The notes under the pieces were generated by a model, which saw only the letters and a program-made list of their open reading frames with translations, did no database searches and was not told the DNA's origin. Below are positions 7,286 through 63,915 of a stretch of 64,000 bases of DNA, piece after piece. How positions within the stretch are numbered: position 1 is the first letter of the stretch; every line of letters starts with the position of its first letter. The position numbers and the translations under genes were made by a program. Origin of the DNA: Haliotis asinina (taxonomy: Eukaryota); the NCBI RefSeq assembly GCF_037392515.1, contig NC_090280.1:54301037-54365036 (forward strand), read 5' to 3'.

Positions 7286-8070
7286 GTATGTACACATTGT
7301 GTTTAAAGAACAACTGTGTGGTTATTTGACATACATTCAAACTATATAAAAATCTGTAAATAATCGAATCTGCACCTGACAATCCAGTGATTGACATCAT
7401 GACCAGTACTCTTCACAATTTGGATTGAGCGTGAACCCAGATGAAGATATCATACAGAAACTTGAAGGCCTTATGGTGCCAGTTAAGTTGGAACATTCCT
7501 CATAATTTATGTGTGACAAGAACAAAACTGTTAAACATAGTTTCTACTTAAATTTCAAACTGCACATTACCACCTGGTGTTGCTCTCAATTAGAAAGACA
7601 GAAACATAAACTCAGGTATTTCTTTTATTCAATGTAAATAATATAAATTAGAAATGATGTCTTGAAAGTTTCTCATTCTTGGCATATTCGCCTTTATCAA
7701 GATTTAACACTGATGACCTGACAAGATTCTTACATGTATGCTCTGTGTTCTTTCCAAAAGCTCAAGTAACCATATCTTAACTATTTTTTGAGCTGTAAGA
7801 ATTAATTTCTTTATGAACATTATTAAATACATGTATAAACAAACATGACACCTATCAACATCTAAGATGAACATGGTCATGCAAATAAATGTTACAGTAA
7901 ACTAGTTATAGGAAGCTCAAAGGGATCACTAGTTTTATTTGTCATATCTGAAGCTCATTATTGGTGCGTCTTCATAGTTTATATGATTGTTTGAACATCT
8001 TTGTGGAAGTTCATGAGTCAAAATTGAAGCATGCAACTGTATTGATGACAACGTCTTGTGTATTGCATCT

Positions 8071-8305
8071 ATTTGGTCAACGAAGATACTTGTACCATTA
8101 TTTGGTCAACGAAGATACTTGTACCATTATTTGGTCAACGAAGATACTTGTACCATTATTTGGTCAACGAAGATACTTGCACCATTATTTGGTCAACGAA
8201 GATACTTGTACCATTATTTGGTCAACGAAGATACTTGTACCATTGTTTGGTCAACGAAGATACTTGTACCATTATTTGGTCAGCGAAGATACTTGCACCA
8301 TTATT
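8071..8305. repeat. 29-bp minisatellite, about 8 copies (atttggtcaacgaagatacttgtaccatt), in intron 1 of the RNF34-like gene
   Basis: Direct reading. The ORFs at 7961-8378 in the track are artefacts of this array. Confidence 0.9.
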
Positions 8306-9163: not shown

Positions 9164-9457
9164 AAAATGTGCAGAGATTGTAAACGTCAATTTTGCTCAA
9201 CTTGTCTGCCAAAAGAAGCAAATAAACGTGATAGACAATGTGAAAAGTGCCGAATTATTGTCTCTGGGAACTTTAGCCGCCAAATCTTGCAAGAGTGGAG
9301 GGTCAAGGACATGCGATGCTTCCTTGACAGCCACAACATTCCAACCAATATGTGCCGTGAAAAACATGACCTCATTGACCTTGTGATACTCCACTACAGC
9401 CGAGGATCTGTCTCAAACTCAGAGGTTGAGCATGAGAGACTGGTACAGCAGTTGGTG
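9164..9457 (+). CDS. RNF34: RNF34/RFFL-like exon 2 (KMCRDCKRQFCSTCL...NMCREKHDLIDLVILHY...ERLVQQLV)
   Basis: Acceptor tttttttttcag|AAAATG. Phase 0, 294 nt. Matches human CDCKKDFC..C.LC and TCREKEDLVDLVL. Donor TTGGTG|gtaagt at 9458. Confidence 0.8.
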
Positions 9458-9905
9458 GTAAGTCCTGCTTGTATTGGGTAGAGAAGGTGGGATTTATATC
9501 TGTCAGTCAACTCAGGGAGGCGCAACGTGAGAGACTGGTACAGCAGTTGGTGGTAAGTCCTGCTTGTATTGGGTAGAGAAGGTGGGATTTATATCTGTCA
9601 GTCAACTCAGGGAGGCGCAACGAGTGAGAGACTGGTACAGCAGTTGGTGGTAAGTCCTGCTTGTATTGGGTAGAGATGGAAGGATGTATATCTGTCAATC
9701 ATCGCAAGAAGGCGGAATGTGAGAGACTGGTACAGCAGTTGGTGGTAAGTCCTGCTTGTATTGGGTAGAGATGGAAGGATGTATATCTGTCAATCATCGC
9801 AAGAAGGCGGAATGTGAGAGACTGGTACAGCAGCTGGTGGTAAGTCCTGCTTGTATTGGGTAGAGATGGAAGGATGTATATCTGTCAATCATCTCAGAGA
9901 GGCAG
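9431..9905 (+). repeat. Tandem array of 5 units of about 95 bp. Each unit contains the last 23 nt of exon 2 plus its 5' splice site plus 72 nt of intron
   Basis: gagagactggtacagcagttggtg|gtaagtcctgcttgtattgggtagag... recurs at about 9434, 9529, 9626, 9721 and 9816. Confidence 0.9.
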
Positions 9906-11139: not shown

Positions 11140-11341
11140 GACTCACCTGTGTTAAATCAAGTTCCCCGTATGAGGCTTGATAATATTTCATCTGTGGAGG
11201 AGGTTGACACACTGACAGTCAGGCAGTTGAAAGAGGTCCTTGCAAATAACTTTGTGGATTACAAGGGGTGCTGTGAAAAGTCAGAACTCACTGACCGAGT
11301 GAAGCGGCTGTGGAATGAAGAACAGATAAACAGAGACAAAG
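11140..11341 (+). CDS. RNF34: RNF34/RFFL-like exon 4 ([67 protein letters not shown])
   Basis: Acceptor gtattgcag|G, donor AAAG|gtaact. Strong match to human [27 protein letters not shown].RLY. Confidence 0.8.
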
Positions 11342-12409
11342 GTAACTAGGCAGTACAGTGTATTTTGTCCACAGGACTGATGAGGTCACATTGTCGGTGA
11401 GGGATGGTCAGCGTTTCTTGGTCATGCTGAAGACCCAATTTAATTCCTCGTGTAAAACCCATTTGTTGTATCCTGTGATATTACAGGAATATTACTAAAA
11501 GTACATGCACAAACAGCATACCTGCCATGCTCACTCTCACTCACATCTGTGGTGAACAAAAGGACTTTGAAAGCTTGAATTGTAATGTTTGTCTTGAAAA
11601 GGTCATAATCAGCAGGGATTGGGAAAGAGAACTTTGACAAAACACCATTTACAGGATTATTAGCCATTTTCTGTATTTTGAATGGGCCATTGCCCTTGTG
11701 TCAATTGTAAACTTCAAAATTTTAATGGGTCATTTTTAATTCTAATGTGCAAAATGGCCCATGAACCCTGCCTTTCCCTGAATCAATATCGTTCTATGCT
11801 TTTAAATACTTGTTTTTAGAAGTCCTGGAATTATGCTCTTACTACACATCAAAATTCATTTATATGCAAAATACAATCTTTTTCGCTATTGTCCAACAAC
11901 TTATGTGATGATGCTGTACCAAACTGAGCTGATTTTGCATGCCTAGTTTGTATGATTGATAGGGCTGGATATAGCCCTGATTTTCATACTGCAATATTTT
12001 GCAATGATTTAAGAGATATTGGGACACGTATTGTGATACATCGACTGGAAGGTTTCTGTCCAGGTGTGTACCATAATTTCATAAAAGCTTTCTGTGTGCA
12101 ACACCATTACCTTAGTTGCTGTTACACCATACTTTCAGGCTACTCGTCCCAATTATGTATGGTGGCATGCCAATGCATTACAGATAAATAAAATGATATA
12201 GAGCCTTAATGTAGAATGTTTAATGGAAGTCCTGTATTGCAAGAAAGTTGCACGAACATAATGCTTAAGGTAATGTAACGATTTTCATGATCAGTGTTGC
12301 TTTCTTCTACATAATGCACTCCAATGCACCAATTGTGTAATTATTGTTACTGCATGTTAGTGATTCATCGGGAATCAATTCAGTATTAGAACTTGTATGC
12401 TTCTCTCGA

Positions 12410-14399: not shown

Positions 14400-14645
14400 G
14401 AGCGATTTTTGAATGTCTGGGTAGCCTTGTAGTTAAAATTGATTGATTGGTTTGTTGTTTAACGTCACACTCAGCAATATTCCAGATATGTGGCGATGAT
14501 CTGTATATAATCAAGTCTGGACCAGACAGTATAATGATCAACAGCATGAGCATTGATATCCGCAGTTGGGATAGGATGACGTGTCAACCAAGTCAGCGAG
14601 GTTGACCACCTGGTCCTGTTAGTGACCTCATATGACAAGCATGAT
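14400..14645 (-). mobile_element. SINE family 2 copy (antisense relative to the inferred element sense)
   Basis: ttaacgtcacactcagcaatattccag...tctggaccagacagtataatgatcaacagcatgagcattgatatccgcag...caaccaagtcagcgaggttgacc. Confidence 0.65.
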
Positions 14646-14816
14646 AGCTAACGATCTAGGTTCCATTTCCCTCATGGGTAGAATGAACCTATTTCAGGTG
14701 TCTCCTGATATGATATTCCTGGAATATTGCTAAAACCATACTCACTCGCTCGCTCACTCACTCACTCACTCACTCACTCACTCACTCACTCACTCACTCA
14801 ATCACTCACTCATGTT
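14645..14816 (+). mobile_element. SINE family 1 copy (5'-truncated) with a (CTCA)n tail at 14743-14816. The tail ends 15 nt before the acceptor of the last RNF34-like exon
   Basis: ...ggttccatttccctcatgggtagaatgaacc...ctggaatattgctaaaaccatactcactcgctcgctcactcactcactca... Confidence 0.7.
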
Positions 14817-14832
14817 CCTTCTTCCATTTCAG

Positions 14833-15011
14833 CAGGGACAACGGCCAGCTCGGAGCTGGACCTGTGTAAGATATGCATGGACAATACTATTGACTGTGTT
14901 TTGCTGGAATGTGGTCACATGATCACATGCACCTCCTGCGGCAAGCGTCTTGCTGAATGCCCCATGTGCCGACAGTACGTGGTGCGTGTTGTCCACACGT
15001 TCCGGTCATAG
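14833..15011 (+). CDS. RNF34: RNF34/RFFL-like last coding exon: C3HC4 RING finger ([49 protein letters not shown])
   Basis: Acceptor ccatttcag|CAGGG, stop TAG at 15009-15011. Near-identical to the human RNF34/RFFL C-terminus ([49 protein letters not shown]). Confidence 0.85.
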
Positions 15012-16289: not shown

Positions 16290-17140
16290 GACTTATAGTT
16301 TAGGGGTACTACTACAGATGGGTCAGTTACCTGAGATGAGATATGACTGACTGGGGTGCTACAAGAGATGGAGTGTTACTGACGATAGGGTTATTGCTGA
16401 AGATGGTGGTGTTACTGGATAATGCAGAGCACAGGGGTGCTACAAGAGATGAAGTTTTACTGAAGATAAAGGTATTACTGAAGATGGGGACTTGTTACTG
16501 GGTGTAGGGGTGTAATGAGAGACAGGGTGTTCCTGGAGATAGGAGTTCAAGAGATGGAGTGTTACAGGGTGTAGGGGTGTTATCAGAGACAGGGTGTTAC
16601 AGTATGTTCTAAGAGATAGGGTGTTACTAGGCATGGGGGTGTTATCAGAGACAGGGTGTTACTGGAGATAGGGAGTTCTACGAGATGGGGTGTTACAGGG
16701 AATAAGGGTGTTATGAGAGACTGGGTGTTCCTGGAGATAGGGAGTTCTAGGACATACGGTAGGGTGTTACAGGGCATAGGGGTGTTATCAGAGACAGGGT
16801 ATTCTTGGAGACGGGGAGTTCTAAGAGTTGGGGTGTTACAGGGCGTAGGGTTGTTATGAGAAACATGTGTTAATGAAGATGGGGAGTTACTAGAGATGGG
16901 GAGTTACTAGAGATGGGGAGTTACTAGAGATGGGAAGTTACTAGAGATGGGGAGTTACTAGAGATGGGGAGTTACTAGAGATGGGAAGTTACTAGAGATG
17001 GGGAGTTACTAGAGATGGGGAGTTACTAGAGATGGGGAGTTACTAGAGATGGGGAGTTACTAGAGATGGGAAGTTACTAGAGATGGGGAGTTACTAGAGA
17101 TGGGAAGTTACTAGAGATGGGAAGTTACTAGAGATGCTGA
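16290..17140. repeat. Compound minisatellite: degenerate about 60-bp units (gggtgttac.g..ataggg..) at 16290-16870, then about 15 near-perfect copies of a 17-bp unit (atggggagttactagag) at 16876-17140
   Basis: Direct reading. The ORFs at 16440-16859 are artefacts of this array. Confidence 0.9.
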
Positions 17141-26627: not shown

Positions 26628-26871
26628 AGCTTCAATCTTCATGGCCTGTGCCTTGAGCTTAGCCTGGTCTACAGCAGCCTCTCCCTCGATCTTGGCAGCT
26701 TCAGCACGGGACTGAGCCTCTGCCTTGGCCTGTCCAGTACTCTCCACAGCAGCACTGTTGGCCTGCAACTCAAGGAGCTCCTTGCGGGACCTCTCAGCCT
26801 CTGCCTCATCGCTGATCTTCTGACGCTCCAGACGACCCTTGGCTTCCTGCTCTAAACGCTCAGCTTCATGT
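26628..26871 (-). CDS. MVP: MVP coding exon 13 ([82 protein letters not shown])
   Basis: Acceptor cttcccag|A, donor GCT|gtaagt. Matches human [66 protein letters not shown]. Confidence 0.9.
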
Positions 26872-26882
26872 CTGGGAAGTCG

Positions 26883-27068
26883 AAGTAGTAGTGAGTGAGT
26901 GAGCGAGTAAGCAGGTGGTTTTACACCACTTTTAGCAATATTCCAGCAATATTACAGCGGTGGACACCAGAAATGAGCTTTACACATAGTACCCATGAGA
27001 GGAATCAAACCAGAGTGTTTGGCATAACAAGCAATTGCTTTAACCACTATGCTACCCTACCGCCCCCA
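26883..27068 (-). mobile_element. SINE family 1 copy in MVP intron 12. Its (CTCA)n tail lies directly upstream of the exon 13 acceptor
   Basis: agtgagtgagtgagcgagtaagcaggtggttttacaccacttttagcaatattccagcaatattacagcggtggacaccagaaatgagc...accactatgctaccctaccgcccc. Confidence 0.7.
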
Positions 27069-27369: not shown

Positions 27370-27581
27370 CTGGCAGCAGCTTCCTGTGAGTTGGTGGTGA
27401 TTTCAATGGCGAGCTGCACAGACTTCATCAGAGAATCCCGTGTTCGCTGATCAACAGGCTCCACAGACTGAATGTCAATACTGGTGATGAAGAGGTTGTT
27501 CTGGGGGAAGGTGAACTTCTCCTTCACTTTGTTCTTGTCATCAAGACCAAAAACAGATGCACGGATGATCTTGGCAGAGTT
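27370..27581 (-). CDS. MVP: MVP coding exon 12 ([70 protein letters not shown])
   Basis: Acceptor attttacag|AAC, donor CCAG|gtaact. Matches human NSARIIRTAVFGF...[47 protein letters not shown]. Confidence 0.9.
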
Positions 27582-31773: not shown

Positions 31774-31926
31774 TAACTGGGATTAGCCCAGTGTTTAAAG
31801 TGTTTGCCCTGAAGACCCAGGTTTGATTCCCTTCATGGGTACAATGTTTGAAGCCAATTTCTGGTGTCCCTGCTGTGATGTGCTGGAATATTGCAAAAAG
31901 TGCCATCAAAACAAACTCATTCGTTC
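31774..31926 (+). mobile_element. SINE family 1 copy in MVP intron 5 (antisense to the gene)
   Basis: gggattagcccagtgtttaaagtgtttgccctgaagacccaggtttgattcccttcatgggtacaatgtttgaagccaatttctggtgtccctgctgtgatgtgctggaatattgcaaaaagtgcc. Confidence 0.7.
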
Positions 31927-33413: not shown

Positions 33414-33545
33414 TCAACTTAACAGTTAAAGCATGCCAGTTCAATCCACACATGGCCACAATGTATGAAGTCCATTTCTGGTGTCCCCCGCCATGAGATA
33501 TTGTTGGAATATCTCTAAAAGTAGAATAAAACTAAACACACTATC
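33414..33545 (+). mobile_element. SINE family 1 copy (partial) in MVP intron 3
   Basis: cagttaaagcatgccagttcaatccacacatggccacaatgtatgaagtccatttctggtgtcccccgccatgagatattgttggaatatctctaaaagtagaataaaactaaacac. Confidence 0.6.
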
Positions 33546-36401: not shown

Positions 36402-36562
36402 AGTGAGTTTAGTTTCACGCCGCTTTTAGCAATATTCCAGCGATATCACGGCAGGGGACACCAGAAAATGGGCCTCACACATTGTACCCATGTGGGGAAT
36501 CGAACCCGAGTCTTCGGCGTGACGAGCGAACGCTTTAACCACTAGGCTACCCCACCGCCCCT
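36402..36562 (-). mobile_element. SINE family 1 copy, near full length (tRNA-like head with A and B boxes at the right end)
   Basis: Reverse complement reads ggggcggtggggtagcctagtggttaaagcgttcgctcgtcacgccgaagactcgggttcgattccccacatgggtacaatgtgtgaggcccattttctggtgtcccctgccgtgatatcgctggaatattgctaaaagcggcgtgaaactaaactcactcac. Confidence 0.8.
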
Positions 36563-41562: not shown

Positions 41563-41700
41563 GTACTTTTGCAACATATGTCATATTTGGGATTTCACTT
41601 TCTTAGTAAAGTACAAATTCTAGTACTTTTTTCGGTTGAGTCCCATCCGGGATTCGAACCCGCACCCTCAGAGTCAGGCACCTAATCGCCAGCACACAAA
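41563..41700. repeat. Partial copy of the foldback element family (one arm plus the central Pol III B-box-like motif)
   Basis: gcaacatatgtcatatttgggatttcactttcttagtaaagtacaaattctagtacttttttcggttgagtcccatccgggattcgaacccgcaccctcagagtc, identical to the arm at 41868-41945. Confidence 0.6.
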
Positions 41701-41831
41701 GTCAGCCGCCTAGCCTGCTCAGCCACCGCGACTTCCACAAAATGAAAGTCGGACAACTGGTAGTCTAGACTGCGTACTTTGTGTACCCCTCTGATGAGTG
41801 TAAATTGGCACGGCTCACACGGCCGAAAGCT

Positions 41832-48365: not shown

Positions 48366-48535
48366 GCTAGTGGGGGCGGTGGGGTAGCCTAGTGGTTAAA
48401 GCGTTCGCTCGTCACGCAGAAGATGGGTACAATGTGTAAGGCTCATTTTCTGGTGTCCCCTGCCGTGATATAGCTGGAATATTGCTAAAAGCGGCGTAAA
48501 ACCAAATTCACTCACTCACTCACTCCTTGCTAATG
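48366..48535 (+). mobile_element. SINE family 1 copy with a (CACT)n tail
   Basis: ggggcggtggggtagcctagtggttaaagcgttcgctcgtcacgcagaagatgggtacaatgtgtaaggctcattttctggtgtcccctgccgtgatatagctggaatattgctaaaagcggcgtaaaaccaaattcactcactcactcactcc. Confidence 0.8.
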
Positions 48536-51041: not shown

Positions 51042-51997
51042 GTGTGTATTGTCTGATGTTGGCTCAAAATAGATAAATAGTGTATTAGGTGGTGCATATG
51101 GTCAGATGCAATACGTGCTGAACACACCCTTGCCATGTTTTAGGTGGACAGTTAAGGTATGAATGAAAGTCAAGGTATGATCTCATTTCAGAGGTGATAT
51201 CTGAGGACTGTCAAAGGATGGCCGGTTGCATGAGCGAGTAAATGAGTGAGCAGGTGGGCGAGAAAGTAGTGAGTGAGTGGATGAGTGAGTGAGTGAGTGA
51301 GGTTTTGTGCCACTTTTATCTCGTGTGCAGTATCACTTCACACATTGTGTGCAAAGCTTATGTGGCATTATCGCATTTAGTCATGTTACTGACTTCATAT
51401 TGTCTACATGCCTGTCTTAATGACTTAATAAATCAGAAGTATGTGAAGAGGTGTGTTTCTTGATAATTAAAAATTTGTAGAAATAGACTTCTTATTAAAT
51501 TTCATTTGTGGAACTAAAAATGTTAAATGCAAAACAACACATATCCATGCAATCAGTCATCTCAACGGCGCATTTTATTATCAATCTCAGCTCCCTGGGG
51601 AATATCCCAACTCTTACAGCCACAAGGTACACCGACTAGTGTGTCGGCTTTACAAGGTACCCATTCAGAGCTGGGTGGACTGGGACACATAGTCACAGTA
51701 CTTTGTTAGAATATACTGCAAGATGCTGTACCCACAACTCTGTGTTAGTGTCCATGGATTTGTGGGTTCTTTTAATAAGTACACAGGCATGTGAACTGTA
51801 CTCTAGGGATTGTGACAACTTTGAAAGAGTATGCTCACAAGGTTGACTTAAGGGATGCGACTTCATGGATAAGAACTTGCTTTTTTATTGCACAGAGAGA
51901 CAATTCAACAATTACATTGCTGTCAAGCTAAAAGGTCTTGAGAATTAGAGTTGCACATTGTTTATCATATCTATCAACTTTATGTTTGAACCATCAG

Positions 51998-52105
51998 GGG
52001 AGTAAGCTGTGGGGTGGCCGCTTTACCGGAGCAACGGACCCGATCATGGAGAAGTTCAATGCCTCTATCTCCTATGACAAGAGGATGTGGAAGGCAGACA
52101 TTGAG
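51998..52105 (+). CDS. ASL: ASL exon ([36 protein letters not shown])
   Basis: Acceptor aaccatcag|GGG, donor ATTGAG|gtactt. Matches human [36 protein letters not shown]. Confidence 0.9.
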
Positions 52106-52642
52106 GTACTTCCTGTTTTAACACAGTCTTGATCATGGCGCCAGTTTGACTATAAAATTGTAGACCATTGTCCCAAAGTTTCAGGTGTTCAGATTATATC
52201 TATTTCAAAGTAAAGGTTTGATACCTGTGTATTTATCATATATATTCATCATTTTGTGGTTGTTCTGACCCACTGATGACTCTACACAGAGAATCAGTGT
52301 AGATCCTTTAAACTTTGACACATGTGGTTTGGCTCTGTTTACAATTATTTTGATATGTTACCCTAACGACTGCACTTGTTGCAGAGGTCCATTTTGCTTT
52401 CCTTACCTAGCTAAATGGCTTAGGAGGGTGACTTGAAGACAGGAAATTATGACTCCTGGATGCAGAGTGTGTCCCATAGATGACATTTTTTCCTTATTAA
52501 CCTAAAGCTGCTTACAGTTTTTAAAATGGTCACGTAGACAGATTGTACAGCAATGGATCAAGTCCATGTGTGAATCCCATAACAGGATATTGGTAATGTC
52601 ACAGGTGATTTTGGTCTTTACAAGATGTTGCCTTTGTTTCAG

Positions 52643-52729
52643 GGAAGTCAGGCATACGTGAAGGCACTGGAGAAGGTGGGAATTGTGACAGCAGCAGAGA
52701 GGGACTCCATCCTGGATGGCTTGCAAAAG
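52643..52729 (+). CDS. ASL: ASL exon (GSQAYVKALEKVGIVTAAERDSILDGLQK)
   Basis: Acceptor ctttgtttcag|GGA, donor AAAAG|gtgacg. Matches human [29 protein letters not shown]. Confidence 0.9.
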
Positions 52730-54013
52730 GTGACGTTTACACACATAAGGATGATTGCTGGTGTGTCACAGAGAGGTGATATGTAGTATAAGAGTACTAA
52801 AAACAAAAGTTTATTCATTCTTTACCAAAAATATTAGTACATACACATTGAGAATTATTACATTTAAAGACTCCATGGCAGACAGCTTGTGTCAAACTGT
52901 CCAATACGTGTCAGTATAAGAAAGTGCAGACAAGAAGGTTTGATTACAGTGCTAATCCTATCCTAGAAGCAGAGATACCATGAGCAGCCTTCCAACATTC
53001 ATCTATCAAAGGTTTTGTTATCTTGTGTGATGGCATAGCACTATTACTGTATATTTACCACCATCAGAAGTATTGCTGTCTAAGGCATTTAACAAAAGAT
53101 AAACAAACTTGTTGCATATTAGTGCATTATCACTGAGTACATTTGATTGAAATACCAAAATCATTGTTAAAAGTTTCCACCCACATGGTAAAAGAAAAGC
53201 AACAACGATCAGAAAACAGCGTGTATTTCAACCAGTTCAACCCAGGTGAAGTACAATATTGAAAGTATGTTTTCTCTGGGTCTGGCTACAAAGATTGAAA
53301 ATTGGGAATATCATTGATGGGAAGAGTTACTCACAATTATTCCTTTTGAAAACTGAGTCATTCATATTATCTATAATAAGTTGTTGTTTAGTGCCTGCAC
53401 TTAGCTTGGAATCTCACATAAATCCTGAGGCGTGAGCACCTGATCCTGAATGCCTGTACCTGGATGAGTACCTGCGATTGCCTGCGAACCATCCTCATCG
53501 CCAAGCAAACAAAGATGGCGACCTTGTTTAAAGGAAAAAAAAATTCAGATCATCATCATTAGTTAGTATCCTCCTGATGAAAGCGAAAGGAATAGCCAAG
53601 AAACATTGTGTAAACAATTAAGAAGAAGTTGACTTCAATAATATTTTGTCTTATATGTGTTAAATGTCATTTGTCACCACTCACCCCCTTCCATAACCTC
53701 CAACAAGAAGACGAAAAGCTATTCTGCTAGTCATGGAATAATACAAGTTGGTCATGAATGGTTTAATGTAACCAAGCGCTCACATCCATTCAGGACCCAT
53801 GCCAGCGCTCACGGGAAGCAATCACGCTCGTGGCACTCATTGGTCTGAACACACCTCTGGTTTGACTGTGAATGCTTAAATATATTGAATATTGCTCAAA
53901 CTATCAACTGGTGGTTTGCCTGCTTTTATCTGATTTTAAATATATGATAGTATTATGATGCTGTAAAATCTTTACTCCCACACTCATGAATTTACAATGT
54001 GTTGTATTTTCAG

Positions 54014-54097
54014 GTGAAAGAGGAGTGGCAGAAAAATGTGTTCGAGTTGAAACCAGGGGATGAAGATATCCACACTGCCAATGAGAGAAGGCTCAAG
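54014..54097 (+). CDS. ASL: ASL exon ([28 protein letters not shown])
   Basis: Acceptor gtattttcag|GTG, donor CTCAAG|gtcatt. Matches human [28 protein letters not shown]. Confidence 0.9.
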
Positions 54098-54250
54098 GTC
54101 ATTAACCAGTTTTGATTCACAGACAGAAAACTGTTTGAAAGATTAAATTGAAGATGTTCAGGGATTTTTACTACATGTATATTAGTAGCTTCAGGATTCA
54201 CTGAAATGTCAGTGTAGTCGACGATGTCCATGGTTGTGTCAATGTTCCAG

Positions 54251-54405
54251 GAGTTGATCGGTGCAGCAGGGGGCAAGCTTCACACCGGTCGGAGCCGGAA
54301 TGATCAGGTAGCGACCGACATGAGGCTATGGATGAGAGACGCCCAGCTGGAGCTCCGCACCTACCTTACCAATTTCATCAGCGTCATCCTCGACAGAGCC
54401 AAGTC
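54251..54405 (+). CDS. ASL: ASL exon ([52 protein letters not shown])
   Basis: Acceptor aatgttccag|GAG, donor AAGTC|gtgagt. Matches human [30 protein letters not shown]...MVDRAEA. Confidence 0.9.
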
Positions 54406-55124
54406 GTGAGTATGTTGATGTGTAGCATGTGAGGTTAATTTGAGGCATGTACCAGGTTAGAAGAGAGGTCAGCAGAAGAAATAGGCATGTTTTGTGTTTC
54501 CTGGTCCCATGAACGTATGCTAGTTGTGGGATCTCAAGTTGCAGTCCGTTTGGCTCAAAATTGGACCAGTGAAATGCAGTCTAACTCAAAAACTAATAAA
54601 CATAACATTGGCCAGGTCTGTGGAGATGGCACAGCACAGGTTAATGAATCAAATACATTGTCAGCAAGTGTGCATATGCTTCTTGAACACCTGGCTGTCC
54701 CTTTCTCTGCACTCCTCCCTCATAACAAACAGTGATCTGTGTCAGTATTTAAATTTGTTTGTTAAAAATCATTTTAGGACATAAATTTTGCAAAAGAAAA
54801 AAATACATTATTGGCCTGATGTTTTGATTATGTTCAGCCTTTTATTGAGGATATTTATGTTTATTAGTTTTCAAGCCGCTTGCAATTGCATTTCATTGCT
54901 CTGCTTTTGAGCCAGACCATAGAAGGCGTTACAAACTGCAGTTTTCATTTCAAAATGGAACTTGTATGCTGGTCATGGAGGAGACTGCATGTCAGATTTG
55001 TTGACTTTGTTGAATCACTTAGTGCCTTCAAATTCCTGTACACTCTTGCTTTTATTATCGATTACTGGTTTGTCTGTTCTGTTAACTCATTAAGGCCGAG
55101 AGCCGCATATATGCGGCAAATTAA

Positions 55125-55250
55125 TTAGCTTCTCACAGCGAGAGCCGCGTATTGGGGGTAATAAAAAGCACCTCTTATTCAGCGAGAGCCGCATATTGGG
55201 GGTTATGAAAAGCACCTCTCATTCAGCGAGAGCCGCGTATTGGGGGTTTT
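55125..55250. repeat. About 44-bp tandem repeat, 3 copies (cagcgagagccgcgtattgggggt..aaaagcacctct.att) in ASL intron 5
   Basis: Direct reading. Confidence 0.8.
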
Positions 55251-57087
55251 ACATTTTATATTCGTACATTACCTTTAATTTCAATCAATTTAGCAGTAAT
55301 GATCAAAGATTAGCCTTTCTTACTAGAGAGATTACTTTCTGTGTTAATCAGAAGAACTATTAATGTGTTTTGATAACAATTGCTTGCAATGTCGGGGGCT
55401 TATACAGGCAAATGAACACATGTCTGCGAGAAAAGGGATTATGAGATGTTGTTACAGGAGGTACATGTTTGTTACTCGTCATTGGGAGTGAATACTAAGA
55501 TACTATGTTTGCACATTGATTGAATTAACGGTGACAAGGTTACGAAACCTTCTTCTAAATTAAATCATTCATTCATGCATTGTAATAGTTCATATAATGA
55601 ATCGTAGACATAAATAGCAATACTGTATTACACTCATGTTCGTGTAGATTTGAAATAAACCAAGTTACTAATTTAGACCTAATTCATTTGCGACTATTGA
55701 TTTTGAAAGTTGACAATAATACATAATCGAATATGAAGTGATAACTCTTGCATCTACTCATAATATACATATATAGTACACATAAACCATACAAAGGTAA
55801 CTGGGGTATTTTGTTCAAGCTGTTTCATGCTTATTTGAAATGTGATTTTTCAATGCAATTTACATAAGCATTGTGTAAGAAACGTTTGTATTTGATCTCT
55901 GTAATTATCTTATCCTGTGTAATGAACACGTGTATCAGATCTATGGTCAATAAAAGGAGGAGAATATATCAGTTACAGAATTGATGCGTATAATCATTCA
56001 ATCAGACAACACTAAATATATGAACACCTCTTTCAACCTCAAAATAACAGCCTCTGGTCGAATGCATGTCCAGGTAAACTTGTCCTGTGACAAGTGTAAA
56101 ACAAACTTATGCGCTGTTACATCATTGGACAACCTGTTTTGTGGAGTCACGCCCATTGCCAATCTTCTGAACCTCGTTTGCTTTCAAAACAAATATAAGT
56201 ATGCCCATCTTCATAAATATTTGGGGAGATTCAACTACAAGTGTATACATCACAATAAATCAGTATCGTGTTACTTTTTTTAATTCTATAATACATGTAC
56301 TTGAATTATGATATTTATTCATAACAATGACCGCGTATGTGTTGATAAAAATACAGCACACACTGGCAAAGGGGTATGAGAGACACAGGTAATAAATTAC
56401 ATGAAATGCTGTAATATATGTATTCACATCGGCCTCTTTCCCATTTACATCTTTACGAGACAATTAAATAATCAGTACTTGTTTGTGAGACTAGACAGTT
56501 TCCTGTCATATCCGAGACCTGCCAGGGAAATCAGGCATGATTATCACTAATTAGCCTCGTCGCAGCAATCAGGCAGTCAGCGAGGGGTGCCAGGTGTTGG
56601 GCAGTGGAGCGGCTCCAGGGCTTAATGAGTTAAGGAAGAGTAGGGGATATTCATTTTGTGAGCATACCACAAGCTAATGCCAATGCATATGAGAATGTGT
56701 AATATACATATCAATGCAGATGAAGCCTTTCCAAAGGAATGGAATAAATTGTCACATTTTCCCATAATTTCTCTTCATCATGTTTCCTTCTTGACTTCAT
56801 GACATGCATTTCTACTTTATCAGTTTTGTAAATCCCCTACTTTTTTAATGGTAAATATGCAGACTGCCATCATACAGATGGAATATTGCTGAGTGAGGAC
56901 CAACACTGTGCATGAAGTTGTAATTTGTGTGAACTGATGTGCAACTAAATACAGAGAATTAATGCTGTTTTTGTATTGTGAACAGTCACTGTTGTATTCT
57001 TGCTTGAATCATGCTATGTCATGTGTTACAGAGCATGAAGTGACAGCATTATCTGATGTTTTACTTTGCTGCATGTATTACTCCATG

Positions 57088-57135
57088 CTTGTGGCGTTGA
57101 TCACTTGGTTGTCTGGTCCAGACTTGATTATTGTT
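57088..57135 (+). mobile_element. SINE family 2 short fragment
   Basis: gttgatcacttggttgtctggtccagacttgattattg. Confidence 0.45.
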
Positions 57136-57219
57136 TATGTTGATACGAAGCAGAAAAAAAATGATGCCTGCTTTTCTTTCTCTGAATTTTGCCAGTGACT
57201 GGATTGAAATATATTTCAG

Positions 57220-57297
57220 AGAAATTGACATCTTACTCCCTGGTTACACACACTTGCAGAGAGCACAGCCAATCAGATGGAGCCATTGGTTGCTAAG
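57220..57297 (+). CDS. ASL: ASL exon ([25 protein letters not shown])
   Basis: Acceptor atatttcag|A, donor CTAAG|gtaaca. Matches human [25 protein letters not shown]. Confidence 0.9.
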
Positions 57298-58202
57298 GTA
57301 ACACTCTTTAATCTGATTATGGGCTAGGATTGTAGTTTCTGATAACAATGGAAAAACAGTCATAAAGAAAATACATTTGTTTAGAAAATAATTGTTATGC
57401 AATGAAATATTTAACAAAATAGTTGCATTATTAGAAACTATATTTTCCTTGTAGTGAATGTCTTCTTGGTGCACCTCTTTTGTTTCTTTGCTACAATCAT
57501 GGTCAACGTATTACAGTGTATGAAACTCCTAAAAAAGCCAGGAAGCCCACAGGGCTGATAAGTAAATAATGTTGCAGGCTCTGTTGACATATATTAAAAA
57601 TAGGAAATTGAGATATGGTGTTAAAATGATGTAATTCATGGATTACTTATAGTGAGGTAAGCTTTAAACATGTGGAAAAGCAAATAATAATAAAACCATA
57701 ACTTACTGGTCAATGTTGATTCATTTAGTGTCACTGCCATCTGAATCAGAAAAGTGGAAAAGAACGATATTGTTCCTTGGCCAAAAGGATTATCTAGATC
57801 AGTCACATTTAGTGTTAGATAAATGTGTTGGCTGATCTGTGGAAGTTACGGTTTGATTGAACATGAACTATACAGATGTTGTCAAGCTACGACAATTGTA
57901 AATTATTTTCGAAATATTTCGCGAAGTCAGTGGCATAGTCAGATATATACTCTTTGAAAATGTATTGGTTATAAAATAAAATTGCAGCTGGCCGCCGGGC
58001 AGGTGCTGTTTCATACACTGCATATTATGACAGTACCATATCCATGATAATGTTTTTCATGGTGAAGGAAATGTTCCTTAATCGCAGTCCTGTTCATTAA
58101 ATTGGCAAACCATGACTTTAGTGAAAAAATGTTTAAAGTGTCATTCAATCCAACCGATATAATAAATGTTTACATCTCCTTCTTCATCCATGTTCTGCTC
58201 AG

Positions 58203-58280
58203 CTATGGATGGATGCTGCAGCGAGATCTGAAGAGACTAGACCAGCTGAGAGAGAGAACAGCAGTGTTGCCCCTTGGCAG
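58203..58280 (+). CDS. ASL: ASL exon (SYGWMLQRDLKRLDQLRERTAVLPLGS)
   Basis: Acceptor tgttctgctcag|C, donor GGCAG|gtcagt. Matches human [27 protein letters not shown]. Confidence 0.85.
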
Positions 58281-59023
58281 GTCAGTACAGAGTTGTCTCC
58301 CTCTGTAATGGGCCTGTCACATGAAATAGGCAACAGTATGTTTCAGAGTGCGAATAGTTTTCAAATTTGCTAGCCAGTTGGCCTAGCTATGCTTGAAAGT
58401 AATTCACACGTCAAAAATTTGAATCTAGGTGCAGGTTTCATCATTAATATACACAGTAAATGTGTGTTATAACTAAAGAAGTCGTGAGAGTGACGTATTT
58501 ACAAAATGATCCAATGAAAATTCTCAAGCCAGTTTGGCCATTGACTGCTGAAATGTACAGCAGAGTCTAGGTCAGGCAATCTGATGATCAACACACTGAC
58601 CAAATGATCCCATTAATGGACTTTACTGACACGCATGGTAGCTTTAGACTATCAAGGGATGCTTATGTACTAAATCATTTTGATTTTACCTGTGTTTGGT
58701 GTTGGGTTGTATTTTCAAAAGTCTTTAAATATTTTTCAAAGAGCCCATTAAAATATTGTGCGTGTATGATTTTCATTGACTCTGAGAATGGAAACTGAAA
58801 ATACACTGGTCCAATTCCTTGGGTAATAATTGTCTGCCTACAACTTGACATTGTTTTATCTTCATAAAGTACATGTTAATTATGAGTTAAGTTATGCATT
58901 CTTGTGAAAACAATGAACAAACTTTTTGTGTTCTTTACACATTACTCAGCCGTTTGGAGAACGAAAAAAGCCTTCACTGATCATAGTGATGTACCAATCT
59001 GATTCACTTCTTATTGTTGTTTA

Positions 59024-59076
59024 GTGGGGCCCTAGCTGGTAATCCATTTGGTGTGGACAGAGACTTCCTTGCTAAA
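59024..59076 (+). CDS. ASL: ASL exon (GALAGNPFGVDRDFLAK)
   Basis: Acceptor ttgttgtttag|T, donor AAAG|gtaaaa. Matches human GAIAGNPLGVDRELLRAE. Confidence 0.85.
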
Positions 59077-59315
59077 GGTAAAACAAGCTTTCAGATTTCT
59101 TGGTCACCCTCAAAGATATTGTTTAAGCAAGAAGACACATCTTAAATAAAACTGAAAATAATTCAGTGGTATATCCATTTCCATTTGTTTCCAACAAGGG
59201 AAACAAGAGATACCTCACTCGTACCCAAAATACTCTGATTGGCTGACAATACAGACAGCAGGTCATGTGTTCCATTATTGCAGTCAGTGACATCATCGAT
59301 GTTACATTGTTTCAG

Positions 59316-59378
59316 AACTTGGTCTAGGGGGAGTGACAGGAAACAGCTTGGATGCCGTCAGTGACCGAGACTTTGTTG
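59316..59378 (+). CDS. ASL: ASL exon (ELGLGGVTGNSLDAVSDRDFV)
   Basis: Acceptor cattgtttcag|AA, donor GTTG|gttagt (weaker donor). Matches human [21 protein letters not shown]. Confidence 0.8.
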
Positions 59379-59779
59379 GTTAGTTGTTCTTGTTTCTACA
59401 ATGAAATAAATGTACAGCTTTCACATAGCTCAGACCCAGAAAATGATTCTTCGTACAGTTTCCTTTCTACTGAACAGATTTACATCAGATGCGTCTCATG
59501 AAAATAAAAGGAGCATGGAAAATATTTGGAAAGGACATTGTTTTTCTTTTCATTAAGAAGATACATTAGAAGGTGTATAGACACATAGGCGTTTAGTAAC
59601 ATAATTCAGTTTTGATAAGGGCTTGTCATGTACCTAAAATTTGTGATGCATAAATTAAAGAAATTAAATCATTCCAAAAAATCATGAATATTTATCAAGT
59701 TTACTGATTTAGAAGCAAGAAATCCCAAATACATAAAGTTAGGGTATCTATTCTTGAGTTTGTGTCTGCCATGTTCCAG

Positions 59780-59894
59780 TGGAGTTCCTGTTCTGGGCCT
59801 CACTGCTCAGCACGCACCTCAGCCGCTGGGCAGAAGACCTCATCCTTTACTCTACCAAGGAGTTCAACTTTGTCACACTCTCAGACGCATACAG
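59780..59894 (+). CDS. ASL: ASL exon ([39 protein letters not shown])
   Basis: Acceptor catgttccag|TG, donor TACAG|gttagt. Matches human [39 protein letters not shown]. Confidence 0.9.
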
Positions 59895-60445
59895 GTTAGT
59901 GAGAAGAGAATGATTCAGTGGGTGGCCATTTTTTTAACCGAATTAATCAGTTTGGAGGTATGTGTGTGGAAGCAAGTGGGGAGAAGGAAGGAGAAGGATG
60001 TGGATGAGTGTCAGAATAGAGAGCAATCCTGTCGTGGAGATTTTCAGAATGCAAGAATTCAATCAGTGGAGTGGGTTTATTTCAGACTAGAGTAATTCAT
60101 TTCAGAGTTGTCAATAGATACCATATAGATTACATTCCCAGAGCATTGTGAGGACCATTCCTTCACGTCTTGTCACACATTTCTTAGCCTTGTACCCAAT
60201 ACTGGGATGTCATGCTAGTTAGTCAAAATTTGACTTTTTGGAAAGACCCTGAATCTTCTTTTGTATCAAAAATATACTTCACTTAACAACTTTTACCACA
60301 GAATAAGTTGTGTTTCCAATCCACAAATTTGTAGAGGTAGGTTATGTTTCAATATTCAGGATTTCAAGGCAGTAGTTTGGAAATGTTTTGTTAATCCGTG
60401 AAGTCGGTAAGATGATGTAGGATATATGTATTGTTAACATGGTGA

Positions 60446-60601
<156 letters not shown>

Positions 60602-61359
60602 TGACGTGTTATGTATGATTTTTTATCATTAAATATGATTATACACTGACATAGCAGATTGTAGACCAGAAGAGTTATATTGGTAAAAAAATAGTTTCAC
60701 TCTACTCCCTAGTTCAACTTTTAGTGTTAACCATCATTGTCTGTTCTTCCAATATAGTTTATCAATGTCATCAACACGCATACCCGAGTCCTACCGATAT
60801 ATTCTGATTGCTTACAAATGGCAACATCATGGCTGACCAAGCCATTGACAAACTCCCGGATATGGAAATCCAAAATGATCATTTGATCAAACGTTTATTG
60901 AGAAATACACTTCCATCCCCGGAATAAGCAGGTCAGCTGAAAGAGCCAAGTATGTGTATCGTATGTATTGCCGTGGAGTCATTAATATTGTGTATTCAGG
61001 AAACATGCTGGGAGGAGCCAGATTATATTCCTATGAGATTGTACACTTTTACACTTCAAAATACATGTTTTCGCCACCATGAATACACCTTAAAGGCAAG
61101 AGGGGTAGGCAGGTCTGCCATGGTGTCAGATCCTGCATGCCTGTGTTTATTGAGATGTTGAAAAACGATTTGGATGTCCAGATACGAGATATTGTTGATC
61201 ATATCTCATGGTAGTCTCTAACTGGATTACTCTCAGTTCACAATGATATAGGTGGATCACTGGTGTGTGGCGTAAATCAACACTCACTCATCATTTCCAG
61301 AACCACTTCTGTTCATGAATCCCTTGGAAATATGTTAAAATGAAATTTTGAAATGATTA

Positions 61360-61532
61360 TTGCATGAGAATGAAGATTTTTATGGATATCAACTTCTTTA
61401 TGAGAGAACACAACGTTTCGGAGTTAATGCTTACTCCTTCATCACCTGATGAAGGAGTAAGCATTAACTCCGAAACGTTGTGTTCTCTCATAAAGAAGTT
61501 GATATCCATAAAAATCTTCATTCTTATGTATT
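61360..61532. mobile_element. Near-perfect palindrome / hairpin element (about 80-bp arms, 2-nt centre) in an ASL intron
   Basis: gaatgaagatttttatggatatcaacttctttatgagagaacacaacgtttcggagttaatgcttactccttcatca|cc|tgatgaaggagtaagcattaactccgaaacgttgtgttctctcataaagaagttgatatccataaaaatcttcattc. Confidence 0.8.
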
Positions 61533-61721
61533 TTCACTTCTAAATGACATTGAAAGACTTGATTATTGCATGAGGCAAATCGCAAGGATCAACATGATAC
61601 TTTCCTATTCTGTCGGTGATCCAAGATTAGCGTCGAAACAATTTCTCCTTTTGCGAATAAAGATAGGTTTCAACCTGTTTACATGAGTTCCATTTCTGAT
61701 GTATTTTTGATGGCGTTGCAG

Positions 61722-61781
61722 TGTTCTGGGTTTATGATGTCCCTGAAGGGGATCCCCAGCACCTACAACAAGGACCTGCAG
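61722..61781 (+). CDS. ASL: ASL exon ([20 protein letters not shown])
   Basis: Acceptor ggcgttgcag|TGT, donor CTGCAG|gtaatg. Matches human [20 protein letters not shown]. Confidence 0.9.
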
Positions 61782-61960
61782 GTAATGGACAGGACAGTCA
61801 CATCACACTACAAAGGGAAGAGGAAATGAGTCTGTGGCCACCTATCAGTTACAACTCTTGGTGACCAGTAGGGAGGTCCACGGTGGTACTGAGCATGTGC
61901 TTATTAACACCTTCAAGCCTGTCAAACTCACCTGTCTTCCTCATATAAATCAGGGGCTTT

Positions 61961-62142
61961 AGGGTAGATAGCGGTTAAAGTGTAGGCTCATCGTGCCGAA
62001 GACCCGGGTTCGATTCGCCATGTGGGTACAATGTGTGAAGCCCATTTCTGGTGTCCCCTGCTGTGATATTGCTGGAATATTGCAAAAATATTGCTAAACT
62101 GCTATTGCGTATCACCATACTCACTCACTCACTCAAATCATG
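61961..62142 (+). mobile_element. SINE family 1 copy with a (CACT)n tail, in an ASL intron
   Basis: ggctttagggtagatagcggttaaagtgtaggctcatcgtgccgaagacccgggttcgattcgccatgtgggtacaatgtgtgaagcccatttctggtgtcccctgctgtgatattgctggaatattgc...ctcactcactcactc. Confidence 0.75.
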
Positions 62143-62551
62143 TACAGCACAAGTGCTTATCATATAAGATATGAAATTTTAAGCAGTATGAAAACATTTG
62201 TGTGTTAGACTTTCAGTGATATCTATCAGGATTGCAATGTATACTGTGATATATTGGTAGATAAAGTGTTTGAAATTGATTGTTATGCAAATAATACATT
62301 CTACATATAAATTAAAAAATACTGTGTCATATTAATCGTTGTCACTTGCTCCCAATTTCTAGGCATGGATACAGGGGAGATAAATCATGTCAGACATAGT
62401 CACTGATCCAGAATAATGGCATGTCTGCAGGGGCAGCTGGGGAGGGGATGAAATCGGGGGTGAAGGTGCCAGGCTATGAGGTAACTTAGCTGTTTGCCCA
62501 CTGAAAATATTCATATATATATTACACTGAAAATTTTTGTATTTGCTGTAG

Positions 62552-62635
62552 GAGGACAAGGAGGCCATGTTCGACACTTATGACACCCTGGCTGGCATTC
62601 TGCAGGTGGCAACTGGTGTCCTGTCTACGCTTAAG
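62552..62635 (+). CDS. ASL: ASL exon ([28 protein letters not shown])
   Basis: Acceptor atttgctgtag|GAG, donor TTAAG|gtacgt. Matches human [28 protein letters not shown]. Confidence 0.9.
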
Positions 62636-62797
62636 GTACGTTACACAGTTTAATTTAGTCTGTCGTACAGACCCTAAAGCAAATATATCCAAGAAAGCCC
62701 ATGCAAGTCTAGAAAATGTGGCAAATCTAGATTCCCTTAGCTTCTGAAAAATAACTTCTTTAATACTTCTTTAATGGGCATTCTAGAAGTTGGTGAG

Positions 62798-63050
62798 TCA
62801 AAAATGAAACATACAGCTTTATGGATTACAACTTCTTGTTTATTACGTTGAGCGACGAAGCTATCGAAGTCCAATGCCACAAACCTTTGATTCGCTGTAT
62901 GTCGCAACATACCATGTATATAAGCTTCTCACTATTTGGTTGTATTCACATTTAGCTTGAAAACGATGTAAGAATCTACATCGAAACTTCGCTCAACATA
63001 ATGAACAAGAAGTTGTAATCCAAAAAGCTGTATGTTTCATTTCTGAAAAT
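62798..63050. mobile_element. MITE, about 253 bp with about 70-bp TIRs
   Basis: tcaaaaatgaaacatacagctttatggattacaacttcttgtttattacgttgagcgacgaagc at the left matches the reverse complement of gcgaagtttcgatg...ttacaacttcttgttcattatgttgagcga...gctgtatgtttcatttctgaaaat at the right. Confidence 0.65.
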
Positions 63051-63411
63051 TAAAGCTATTTTTTAACTATGAACTTTTTTCAGTAAAATATGTTCATTTC
63101 AGAGACTAGTTGTTAGTCTAAGTTTAACTGCCCCTTGAGAGAAAAGGCAGTAATACTGCTGACAATAGCAGATGAAGCTAAACATGGCTATGATATTTGG
63201 AGCAAAATAAAACTACAGTGGAAGGAAACCCTAAACCTAAAAGTGAAAACTGCAATAAACCAATATATGACTGGAATATTGCATGAAAATAGCTCCAGAA
63301 CAAACTCTGTCGGAGGACCAAGTGTATTTCAGCTTTCAGAGTGGTAGAATTCTGTCCATCCTTGCTCATCTTTCTGAAGATATGGGCTAGCTCACTGTTG
63401 ACATGTTGCAG

Positions 63412-63492
63412 ATCTACCCAGATGCCATGAGTGCAGCTCTCAGCTCCGACATGCTGGCGACAGATGTGGCATACTACCTTGTTAGGAAAGGG
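63412..63492 (+). CDS. ASL: ASL exon ([27 protein letters not shown]). The gene continues beyond the window end
   Basis: Acceptor catgttgcag|ATC, donor AAAGGG|gtaatt. Matches human [27 protein letters not shown]. Confidence 0.85.
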
Positions 63493-63765: not shown

Positions 63766-63915
63766 GGTAGACTCATGGTTAAAGCATTTGCTCAGCACAC
63801 CAAAGGCATGGGTTCAGTTCCCAACGTTGGTGCAATCAGCTCATTTCTGGTGTCCACCACCATGATATTTCTGGAATATTGCTAAAAGTGGAGTATCACT
63901 AAACTCAATAAGTCA
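63766..63915 (+). mobile_element. SINE family 1 copy
   Basis: gagggtagactcatggttaaagcatttgctcagcacaccaaaggcatgggttcagttcccaacgttggtgcaatcagctcatttctggtgtccaccaccatgatatttctggaatattgctaaaagtggagtatcactaaactc. Confidence 0.7.

Follow-up and report, generated by a model that had tools for sequence, protein, structure and literature searches.

Tails of two sense-oriented SINE copies as a putative branch-point region at 3' splice sites of Haliotis asinina

Two copies of one SINE family lie in gene sense immediately upstream of coding exons in a 64,000-nucleotide window of Haliotis asinina DNA (the window being the whole stretch analyzed here, to which all coordinates refer unless another sequence is named). 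One is found in an RNF34-like gene and the other in MVP. We consider it fairly probable that both are old, tolerated insertions, with the SINE tail acting as an AG-free branch region and the adjacent tract, which is non-SINE or derived from a duplication, being available to U2AF. The tail would then supply the branch-point region of both introns and not their proximal polypyrimidine tract.

The conceptual product of the RNF34-like gene contains FYVE, SAP_RNF34_RFFL, RNF34L-like_3rd and zf-C3HC4_3 (RING) domains, and homologues of its RING exon show 66-82% identity, with 79% for the best relative. The last intron and its flanking exons are organized as follows (a slash marks an exon boundary).

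11162..11343, plus strand: preceding RNF34-like exon; donor GACAAAG/gtaac, phase 1, which fits the acceptor of the RING exon
14419..14438, plus strand: SINE head fragment (tRNA-like A-box region), aligning to other heads (gggtagcc.tagtggttaaa)
14439..14646, plus strand: family-2 repeat (~210 nt, unrelated to family-1) nested in the SINE head; 11 further window copies are 70-89% identical to it
14647..14739, plus strand: SINE B-box region and 3' body with the 3' module cctggaatattgctaaaa; 14659-14770 is 71% identical to the MVP copy (blastn)
14740..14812, plus strand: (ACTC)18 SINE tail, predicted branch-point region; AG-free, TRF score 125, 18.2 copies
14813..14832, plus strand: non-SINE pyrimidine tract and acceptor AG tgttccttcttccatttcag; pyrimidine fraction 0.89, absent from other copies
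14833..15011, plus strand: last RNF34-like coding exon (RING finger and stop); open frame, Pfam zf-C3HC4_3 (4.2e-13)

The initial annotation placed the start of this SINE at 14618, a position within the nested family-2 repeat; the element actually begins at about 14419. The family-2 repeat interrupts the SINE head and so must have arrived after the SINE. In another species (L002), the RNF34 donor position and the intron phase are the same as in the window, but the window has a linker before the RING that is shorter than that of L002 by 14 codons. With the linker length differing between species, the position of the RNF34 acceptor is not demonstrably ancient on these alignments. We dropped the possibility that the SINE insertion had shortened the RNF34 exon, because the linker varies between 10 and 25 residues among homologues while the donor position and the phase are conserved. 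The RNF34 acceptor in two other species (L002/L003 and L129) showed nothing comparable to the window SINE.

The RING exon has a NAGNAG acceptor (cagcag, 14830-14835), whose second AG lies at 14834-14835. Either AG is in frame, and the resulting products would differ by one codon (Ala-Gly versus Gly). The same gene contains a 95-bp unit repeated 4.9 times (9433-9903, plus strand), each unit consisting of the last 24 nt of the SAP exon, the donor GTAAGT and 65 nt of intron. The SAP-exon 5' splice site is thereby present in five tandem copies, and splicing from a downstream copy would lengthen the exon by 95 nt and cause a frameshift. Minisatellites are located in the first RNF34 intron (8070-8305, 29 bp x 8.1) and downstream of the RNF34-like gene (16575-17136, 17 bp x ~31).

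MVP is encoded on the minus strand by 14 coding exons, running from 35829 to 25966. The region of its intron 12 is composed of the following parts.

27371..27581, minus strand: MVP coding exon 12; donor GCCAG/gtaac, phase 2
26911..27067, minus strand: sense-oriented family-1 SINE of MVP intron 12, head and body, delimited by alignment to window copies
26891..26910, minus strand: MVP SINE tail ttactcgctcactcactcac; adenosines of its CTCAC motifs at -21, -25 and -29 relative to the exon
26872..26890, minus strand: non-SINE tract and acceptor AG tactacttcgacttcccag; pyrimidine fraction 0.78, AG-free zone of 55 nt
26628..26871, minus strand: MVP coding exon 13 (HEAERLE...KIEA), delimited by frame, phase 2 junction and protein homology

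When spliced, MVP exons 12-14 align without gaps to residues 594-850 of mammalian MVP across the junction (E=1.8e-94). The break R-HEAERLE recurs in ~96/103 homologous ORFs from other animals, and the MVP intron position is therefore ancient. Both acceptors had been described as conserved 3' splice sites of ancient exons, which holds for the intron position in MVP but, given the shorter linker, not demonstrably for the position in RNF34. Exon 13 of MVP is 244 nt long, and its skipping would shift the frame. The phase 1 and phase 2 junctions, together with the contiguous MVP homology, fix both acceptors by their reading frames, and the RNF34 and MVP acceptors are presumably used as annotated. 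An exact look-up of the window ORFs spanning the RING exon and MVP exon 13 gave no match on record.

Judged by its structure and dispersal, the family-1 repeat is a real SINE, very probably derived from a tRNA. Its copies and fragments, about 17 in number, lack coding capacity, are 150-190 nt long and 70-94% identical, and are spread over both strands of the 64 kb. The A- and B-box features GTAGCCTAGTGG and GGTTCGATTCC are visible in the SINE head sequence, and the Rfam tRNA model matches a young copy at its head (36492-36550, minus strand) with 26.1 bits (E=0.0016), which is below the gathering score of 29. ARAGORN made no tRNA call on this head, and Rfam at the gathering threshold returned no match in the whole window. 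At the 3' end of the SINE, a conserved module (...gatattgctggaatattgctaaaagtggcgtaaaacc) is followed by the (ACTC)n tail. This module of ~45 nt is common to family-1 and to a second SINE family in other contigs. Two copies, at 6237 and 36561, are bordered by perfect target-site duplications of 13 and 14 nt (shuffle p=0), and those of the copies at 48371 and 61953 are shorter; the five clear duplications in the window are ctgttatcatgtg, tcatacaggaagag, tccttgcta, aaatca and tgttattttt. The tail has 18 units in the RNF34 copy versus 2-8 in the other copies, and since the former is an expanded perfect array, length polymorphism is likely. A metagenome scan with the 17-mer CTGGAATATTGCTAAAA yielded 120 stretches, nearly all of them chance matches in unrelated contigs; related SINEs were recovered from ~10 contigs, a number too small for statistics.

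Excerpts of published accounts of mollusc tRNA-derived SINEs describe simple-repeat tails, 3' regions shared between families and accumulation in introns (PMC4758252, PMC4824008, PMC11481361), and the MESC SINEs of Bathymodiolus are reported to carry tails of (CACT)n, a repeat identical to (ACTC)n (PMC4758252). In these excerpts, the mollusc elements share with family-1 the succession of tRNA-like head, body, shared 3' module and tandem-repeat tail, but their tails are not tied to splice sites, unlike those in the window (PMC4758252, PMC4824008, PMC11481361). Elsewhere in the window, ARAGORN called a tRNA-Thr(tgt)-like sequence of 95 nt (41638-41732, minus strand) at which Rfam gave no match at the gathering threshold. 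This sequence possibly represents the head of a further SINE family.

The RNF34 and MVP copies are only 71% identical to each other and their flanks are unrelated, and they thus represent independent insertions. In this respect the initial annotation, which had noted two independent sense-oriented copies just upstream of conserved exons, was correct, and the sequences that it quoted at both acceptors are indeed present there. Relative to the window consensus, the RNF34 copy shows 75.4% identity with 0/4 consensus CpGs kept, and the MVP copy 82.8% identity with 0/8 kept, versus 93-94% identity and 5/6 and 8/8 CpGs for young window copies. A search for target-site duplications at the two focal copies found nothing above shuffles (p=0.97 and 0.79). 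The loss of CpGs, the identities of 75-83%, the nested repeat and the lack of a recoverable duplication together indicate that the focal copies are old and have long been tolerated.

In both genes, the tail begins at -21 from the exon and the 19-20 nt next to the AG are non-SINE. Other copies of the SINE end at the tail and continue directly into the target-site duplication; the proximal tract of 19-20 nt is thus probably native, judged by its absence from these other copies. The tails had been proposed to occupy the interval between branch point and acceptor, which agrees with their position from -21 upstream in both genes. The further proposal that the tail is itself the polypyrimidine tract does not fit, since the proximal 19-20 nt are non-SINE and are themselves 78-89% pyrimidine. 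The RNF34 tail does adjoin the acceptor as described, but at a distance of 20 nt from the exon and 18 from the AG instead of the 15 nt initially given.

Branch points usually lie at a distance from the exon that covers about -21. Their consensus, yUnAy, is loose and may not be that of this animal. The tail units CTCAC and CTCAT match this consensus, and the tail contains no AG. The last yTnAy adenosine is located at -21 in both genes (CTCAT at 14812 and CTCAC at 26892), and adenosines of yTnAy motifs occur across the RNF34 tail at -21, -25 and -37 to -57. Between -15 and -60, such motifs are found only in the tail or in the adjoining 3' end of the SINE (CTTAC at -37 in MVP). CTCAY also occurs at plausible branch positions of ordinary introns in the window (RNF34_e3 at -17, ASL_c at -28 and ASL_m at -18).

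The AG-free zone at the RNF34 acceptor measures 133 nt, the largest among 28 acceptors, and is SINE-derived from -21 to -135; the 55-nt zone at MVP exon 13 is SINE except for its last 19 nt. Normally, an AG that follows a branch point at a distance of more than ~8-12 nt serves as the acceptor, and transposed elements can add or remove branch points (PMC7969005). Given this AG exclusion, the branch points should fall inside the 133- and 55-nt zones. The sole adenosine of the non-SINE stretch in RNF34 lies at -8, and the RNF34 branch point is consequently expected in SINE-derived sequence. The non-SINE tract of MVP has adenosines at -18 and -15, which may serve as branch sites although neither fits yUnAy. 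In both introns, an adenosine of the tail would be the preferred candidate branch point.

We located 28 acceptors in three genes, namely the RNF34-like gene, MVP and argininosuccinate lyase. A repeat within 20 nt of the exon was found at 2/28, exclusively at the RNF34 RING exon and MVP exon 13; the next nearest repeats upstream of acceptors end at -47, -59, -88 and -102. We simulated 4-6 intronic copies placed randomly over 24.7 kb of intron and scored tail ends in sense at <=20-30 nt from an acceptor. The simulated P(>=2) was 0.002-0.007, a post hoc statistic for one 64-kb window, and the excess of SINE tails at acceptors is accordingly suggestive. The argininosuccinate lyase gene (51995-63480, plus strand, at least 13 exons) is situated at the right end of the window. 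Sense SINE copies in this gene (61953-62135 and 63838-63895) are more than 400 nt away from the next acceptor.

Within the three gene bodies, all (ACTC)n arrays of at least 10 nt are in sense (4/4, with 0 in antisense), a sample too small for proof. The arrays and the antisense copies in MVP are the following.

14740-14812, 26891-26910, 61281-61290 and 62119-62135, gene sense: (ACTC)n arrays in gene bodies
31812-31902 and 33445-33532, antisense: SINE copies in MVP introns with a tail of at most one unit

Read in antisense, (ACTC)n becomes (GTGA GT)n, which forms arrays of the consensus donor (GTGAGT) with an AG every four bases. The 4/4 sense arrays are consistent with an antisense tail spelling donors and AGs, and selection has probably filtered the orientation of the SINE.

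No close relative of this animal turned up in the protein and contig collections that we searched. We inspected the MVP exon-13 acceptor in four other species and the RNF34 acceptor in two. Ordinary intron ends precede MVP exon 13 in L001 and L128. In L125-L127 (one species, three samples), a case noticed incidentally, a sense 5'-truncated SINE is present at the MVP exon-13 acceptor (L125:3316-3516), which reads ...ctgaaatattattgaaagtggtgttaaacacaataaccctaaccct ACATTCTTATTCCA g/ACATGAAG. This SINE belongs to a different family (79-83% identity to three copies in L107), has the same 3' module of ~45 nt as the window family-1 and ends in a tail with CTAAC, the A being at -20. It is flanked by a 14-nt duplication, ACATT(A/C)TTATTCCA, found as ACATTATTATTCCA upstream and as ACATTCTTATTCCA downstream. 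The duplication places the insertion at the AG itself, the pyrimidine tract having been rebuilt by the duplication. L125 shows how a SINE insertion at an acceptor can be survivable, and this younger case, with a SINE at the AG and a tract rebuilt by duplication, lends support to the alternative offered in the initial annotation, that insertion remodelled the acceptor.

We rejected a common origin of the window and L125 SINEs in a single orthologous insertion, because only the 3' module aligns and each element is ~80% identical to its own family. The MVP acceptor has evidently been struck independently in another lineage, and the L125 element that struck it presumably uses the same LINE as family-1. 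In L124 (10010-10125), a C/A-rich AG-free microsatellite of ~110 nt (cacacccacacac...), which may be a decayed SINE tail, abuts the same MVP acceptor. Two further leads for SINE tails, P0096/L128 and P0139/L129, came from N-terminal extensions of ORFs and both turned out to be ordinary intron ends.

Two cases in one window, and the recurrence in another species of this 3' module in a SINE at the MVP exon-13 acceptor, also speak for targeted integration, which we regard as rather unlikely and which is compatible with a branch region provided by the tail. Under such targeting, the LINE would nick T/C-rich tracts and may prime on (ACUC)n homology; the 3' ends of introns would be hotspots for sense insertion, and the juxtaposition would reflect landing and not survival. 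The duplications of young copies start with TCA, TC or CT, in phase with the tail, and in human NF1 four of 14 de novo Alus hit an acceptor AG or tract, one acceptor being hit twice (PMC3219598). However, the five clear duplications in the window have no obvious common target motif, and most window copies are far from any exon.

It is unlikely that the (CUCA)n tail itself forms a long polypyrimidine tract (U2AF/PTB-like) whose branch point lies where the tail starts or within the body of the SINE. In favour of such a tract, pyrimidines make up 75% of the AG-free tail, the 133-nt zone in RNF34 takes in a CTGAT located at about -124 within the SINE body, and distant branch points with very long pyrimidine tracts are documented (PMC7969005). 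Against this stands the proximal tract of 18 nt (89% and 78% pyrimidine) that is already present between the tail and the AG, as do the consensus-like branch motifs at the usual distance (-21 to -29) and the length of the MVP tail, which has only ~5 units. A tract interrupted by a purine every four bases would also be expected to bind U2AF65 poorly.

Improbable, in our view, is a neutral coincidence, in which SINEs would have come to lie near acceptors by chance and contribute nothing, with the branch point in non-SINE bases or splicing being robust. A genome with many thousands of intronic SINEs yields such cases, the simulation statistic is post hoc, and the two adenosines at -18 and -15 are available in the non-SINE tract of MVP. 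Yet these two do not match yUnAy, and in RNF34 the whole stretch from -21 to -135 is SINE-derived and AG-free, leaving -8 as the sole non-SINE adenosine. YCAY is the motif bound by splicing regulators of the Nova/Pasilla type, and a role of (CUCA)n as a dense UCAC (YCAY) array for tissue-specific repression or modulation of the acceptor is very improbable: 18 consecutive UCAC units do stand directly upstream of the RNF34 acceptor, an argument from sequence alone, but the target there is a terminal exon, skipping of MVP exon 13 (244 nt) would shift the frame, and any array of this repeat unit matches the motif by necessity.

If the tail provides the branch region, as we prefer to think, the two cases could have arisen as follows. 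Two independent retropositions would have landed in sense at ~20 nt from 3' splice sites and would then have been kept. The pyrimidine tract next to the AG would have stayed intact, possibly regenerated by the target-site duplication as in L125, and the AG-less (ACTC)n tail would preserve or lengthen the AG-free zone upstream of the acceptor. The CTCAC/CTCAT repeats would offer a usable branch adenosine at about -21 to -29, with the ancestral branch site being displaced 190-420 nt upstream by the insertion. An intact tract, an AG-free tail and branch-like repeats would together explain why the insertions were tolerated.

Among known systems, the canine Merle allele is the closest analogue. It consists of a SINEC_Cf element at the boundary of PMEL intron 10 and exon 11 with a duplication of ~15 bp, and its tail is a microsatellite between the branch point and the AG whose length switches splicing to a cryptic site (PMC7349775). 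Merle resembles the window cases as a SINE of tRNA type at an acceptor, with a duplication (putative in the window cases) that contains or regenerates the acceptor context and a slippage-prone tail between branch site and AG. Unlike Merle, which is antisense and presents a poly(T) tract, the two window elements run in the direction of their genes and end in (ACTC)n. Merle is also recent, deleterious and phenotype-causing, whereas the window copies are old, in genes that are intact and conserved, with no sign of exonization.

A SINE at -15/-16 of an acceptor causes exon skipping in canine FAM161A (PMC3976383), and Alu insertions into acceptors of human NF1 lead to exon skipping and disease (PMC3219598). 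These cases share with ours a LINE-mediated SINE in the last ~20 nt of the intron or in the AG, as well as repeated strikes on one acceptor. In contrast to the exon skipping and disease seen there, the insertions of the window and of L125 are retained at essential-looking exon junctions. This retention is presumably due to an AG-free, branch-like tail in place of poly(A)/poly(T). In the exonization of antisense Alus, as summarized in PMC7349775, the poly(A) tail is read as poly(U) and forms the polypyrimidine tract. There, too, a SINE tail supplies a 3' splice-site signal, but Alu exonization concerns antisense elements and new, mostly alternative exons, whereas the sense copies of the window serve or spare pre-existing constitutive exons, and the signal in the window copies is more likely the branch region than the pyrimidine tract. 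Mobile elements at splice sites are thus known already; new are the sense orientation, the G-free, branch-like tetranucleotide tail and the apparent long retention at constitutive exons of conserved genes.

In mammals, SINE insertions into the final 20-50 nt of introns rank among the classic pathogenic mutations, and SINE-poor zones flank exons. A type of insertion that is hazardous in mammals seems to be harmless or co-opted here, and the likely reason is that the tail is AG-free and spells the branch-point consensus. The present basis consists of two window loci and one parallel case. A more far-reaching reading, which we consider quite unlikely, is that SINEs with this 3' module and their LINE prefer the 3' ends of introns in sense, where G-free tails and a tract-regenerating duplication would make them splice-neutral. 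With (ACTC)n in the window and a TAACCC-like repeat in the L125 species, these tails would then be branch-point mimics, the acceptor of MVP exon 13 would have been colonized independently in mollusc lineages, and many constitutive branch points would be SINE tails. If the preferred reading, in which the tail provides the branch region, were true genome-wide, the tail repeat of a retroposon would decide whether intron ends are hazardous or permissive, and a sizeable share of mollusc branch points could be recent and repeat-derived.
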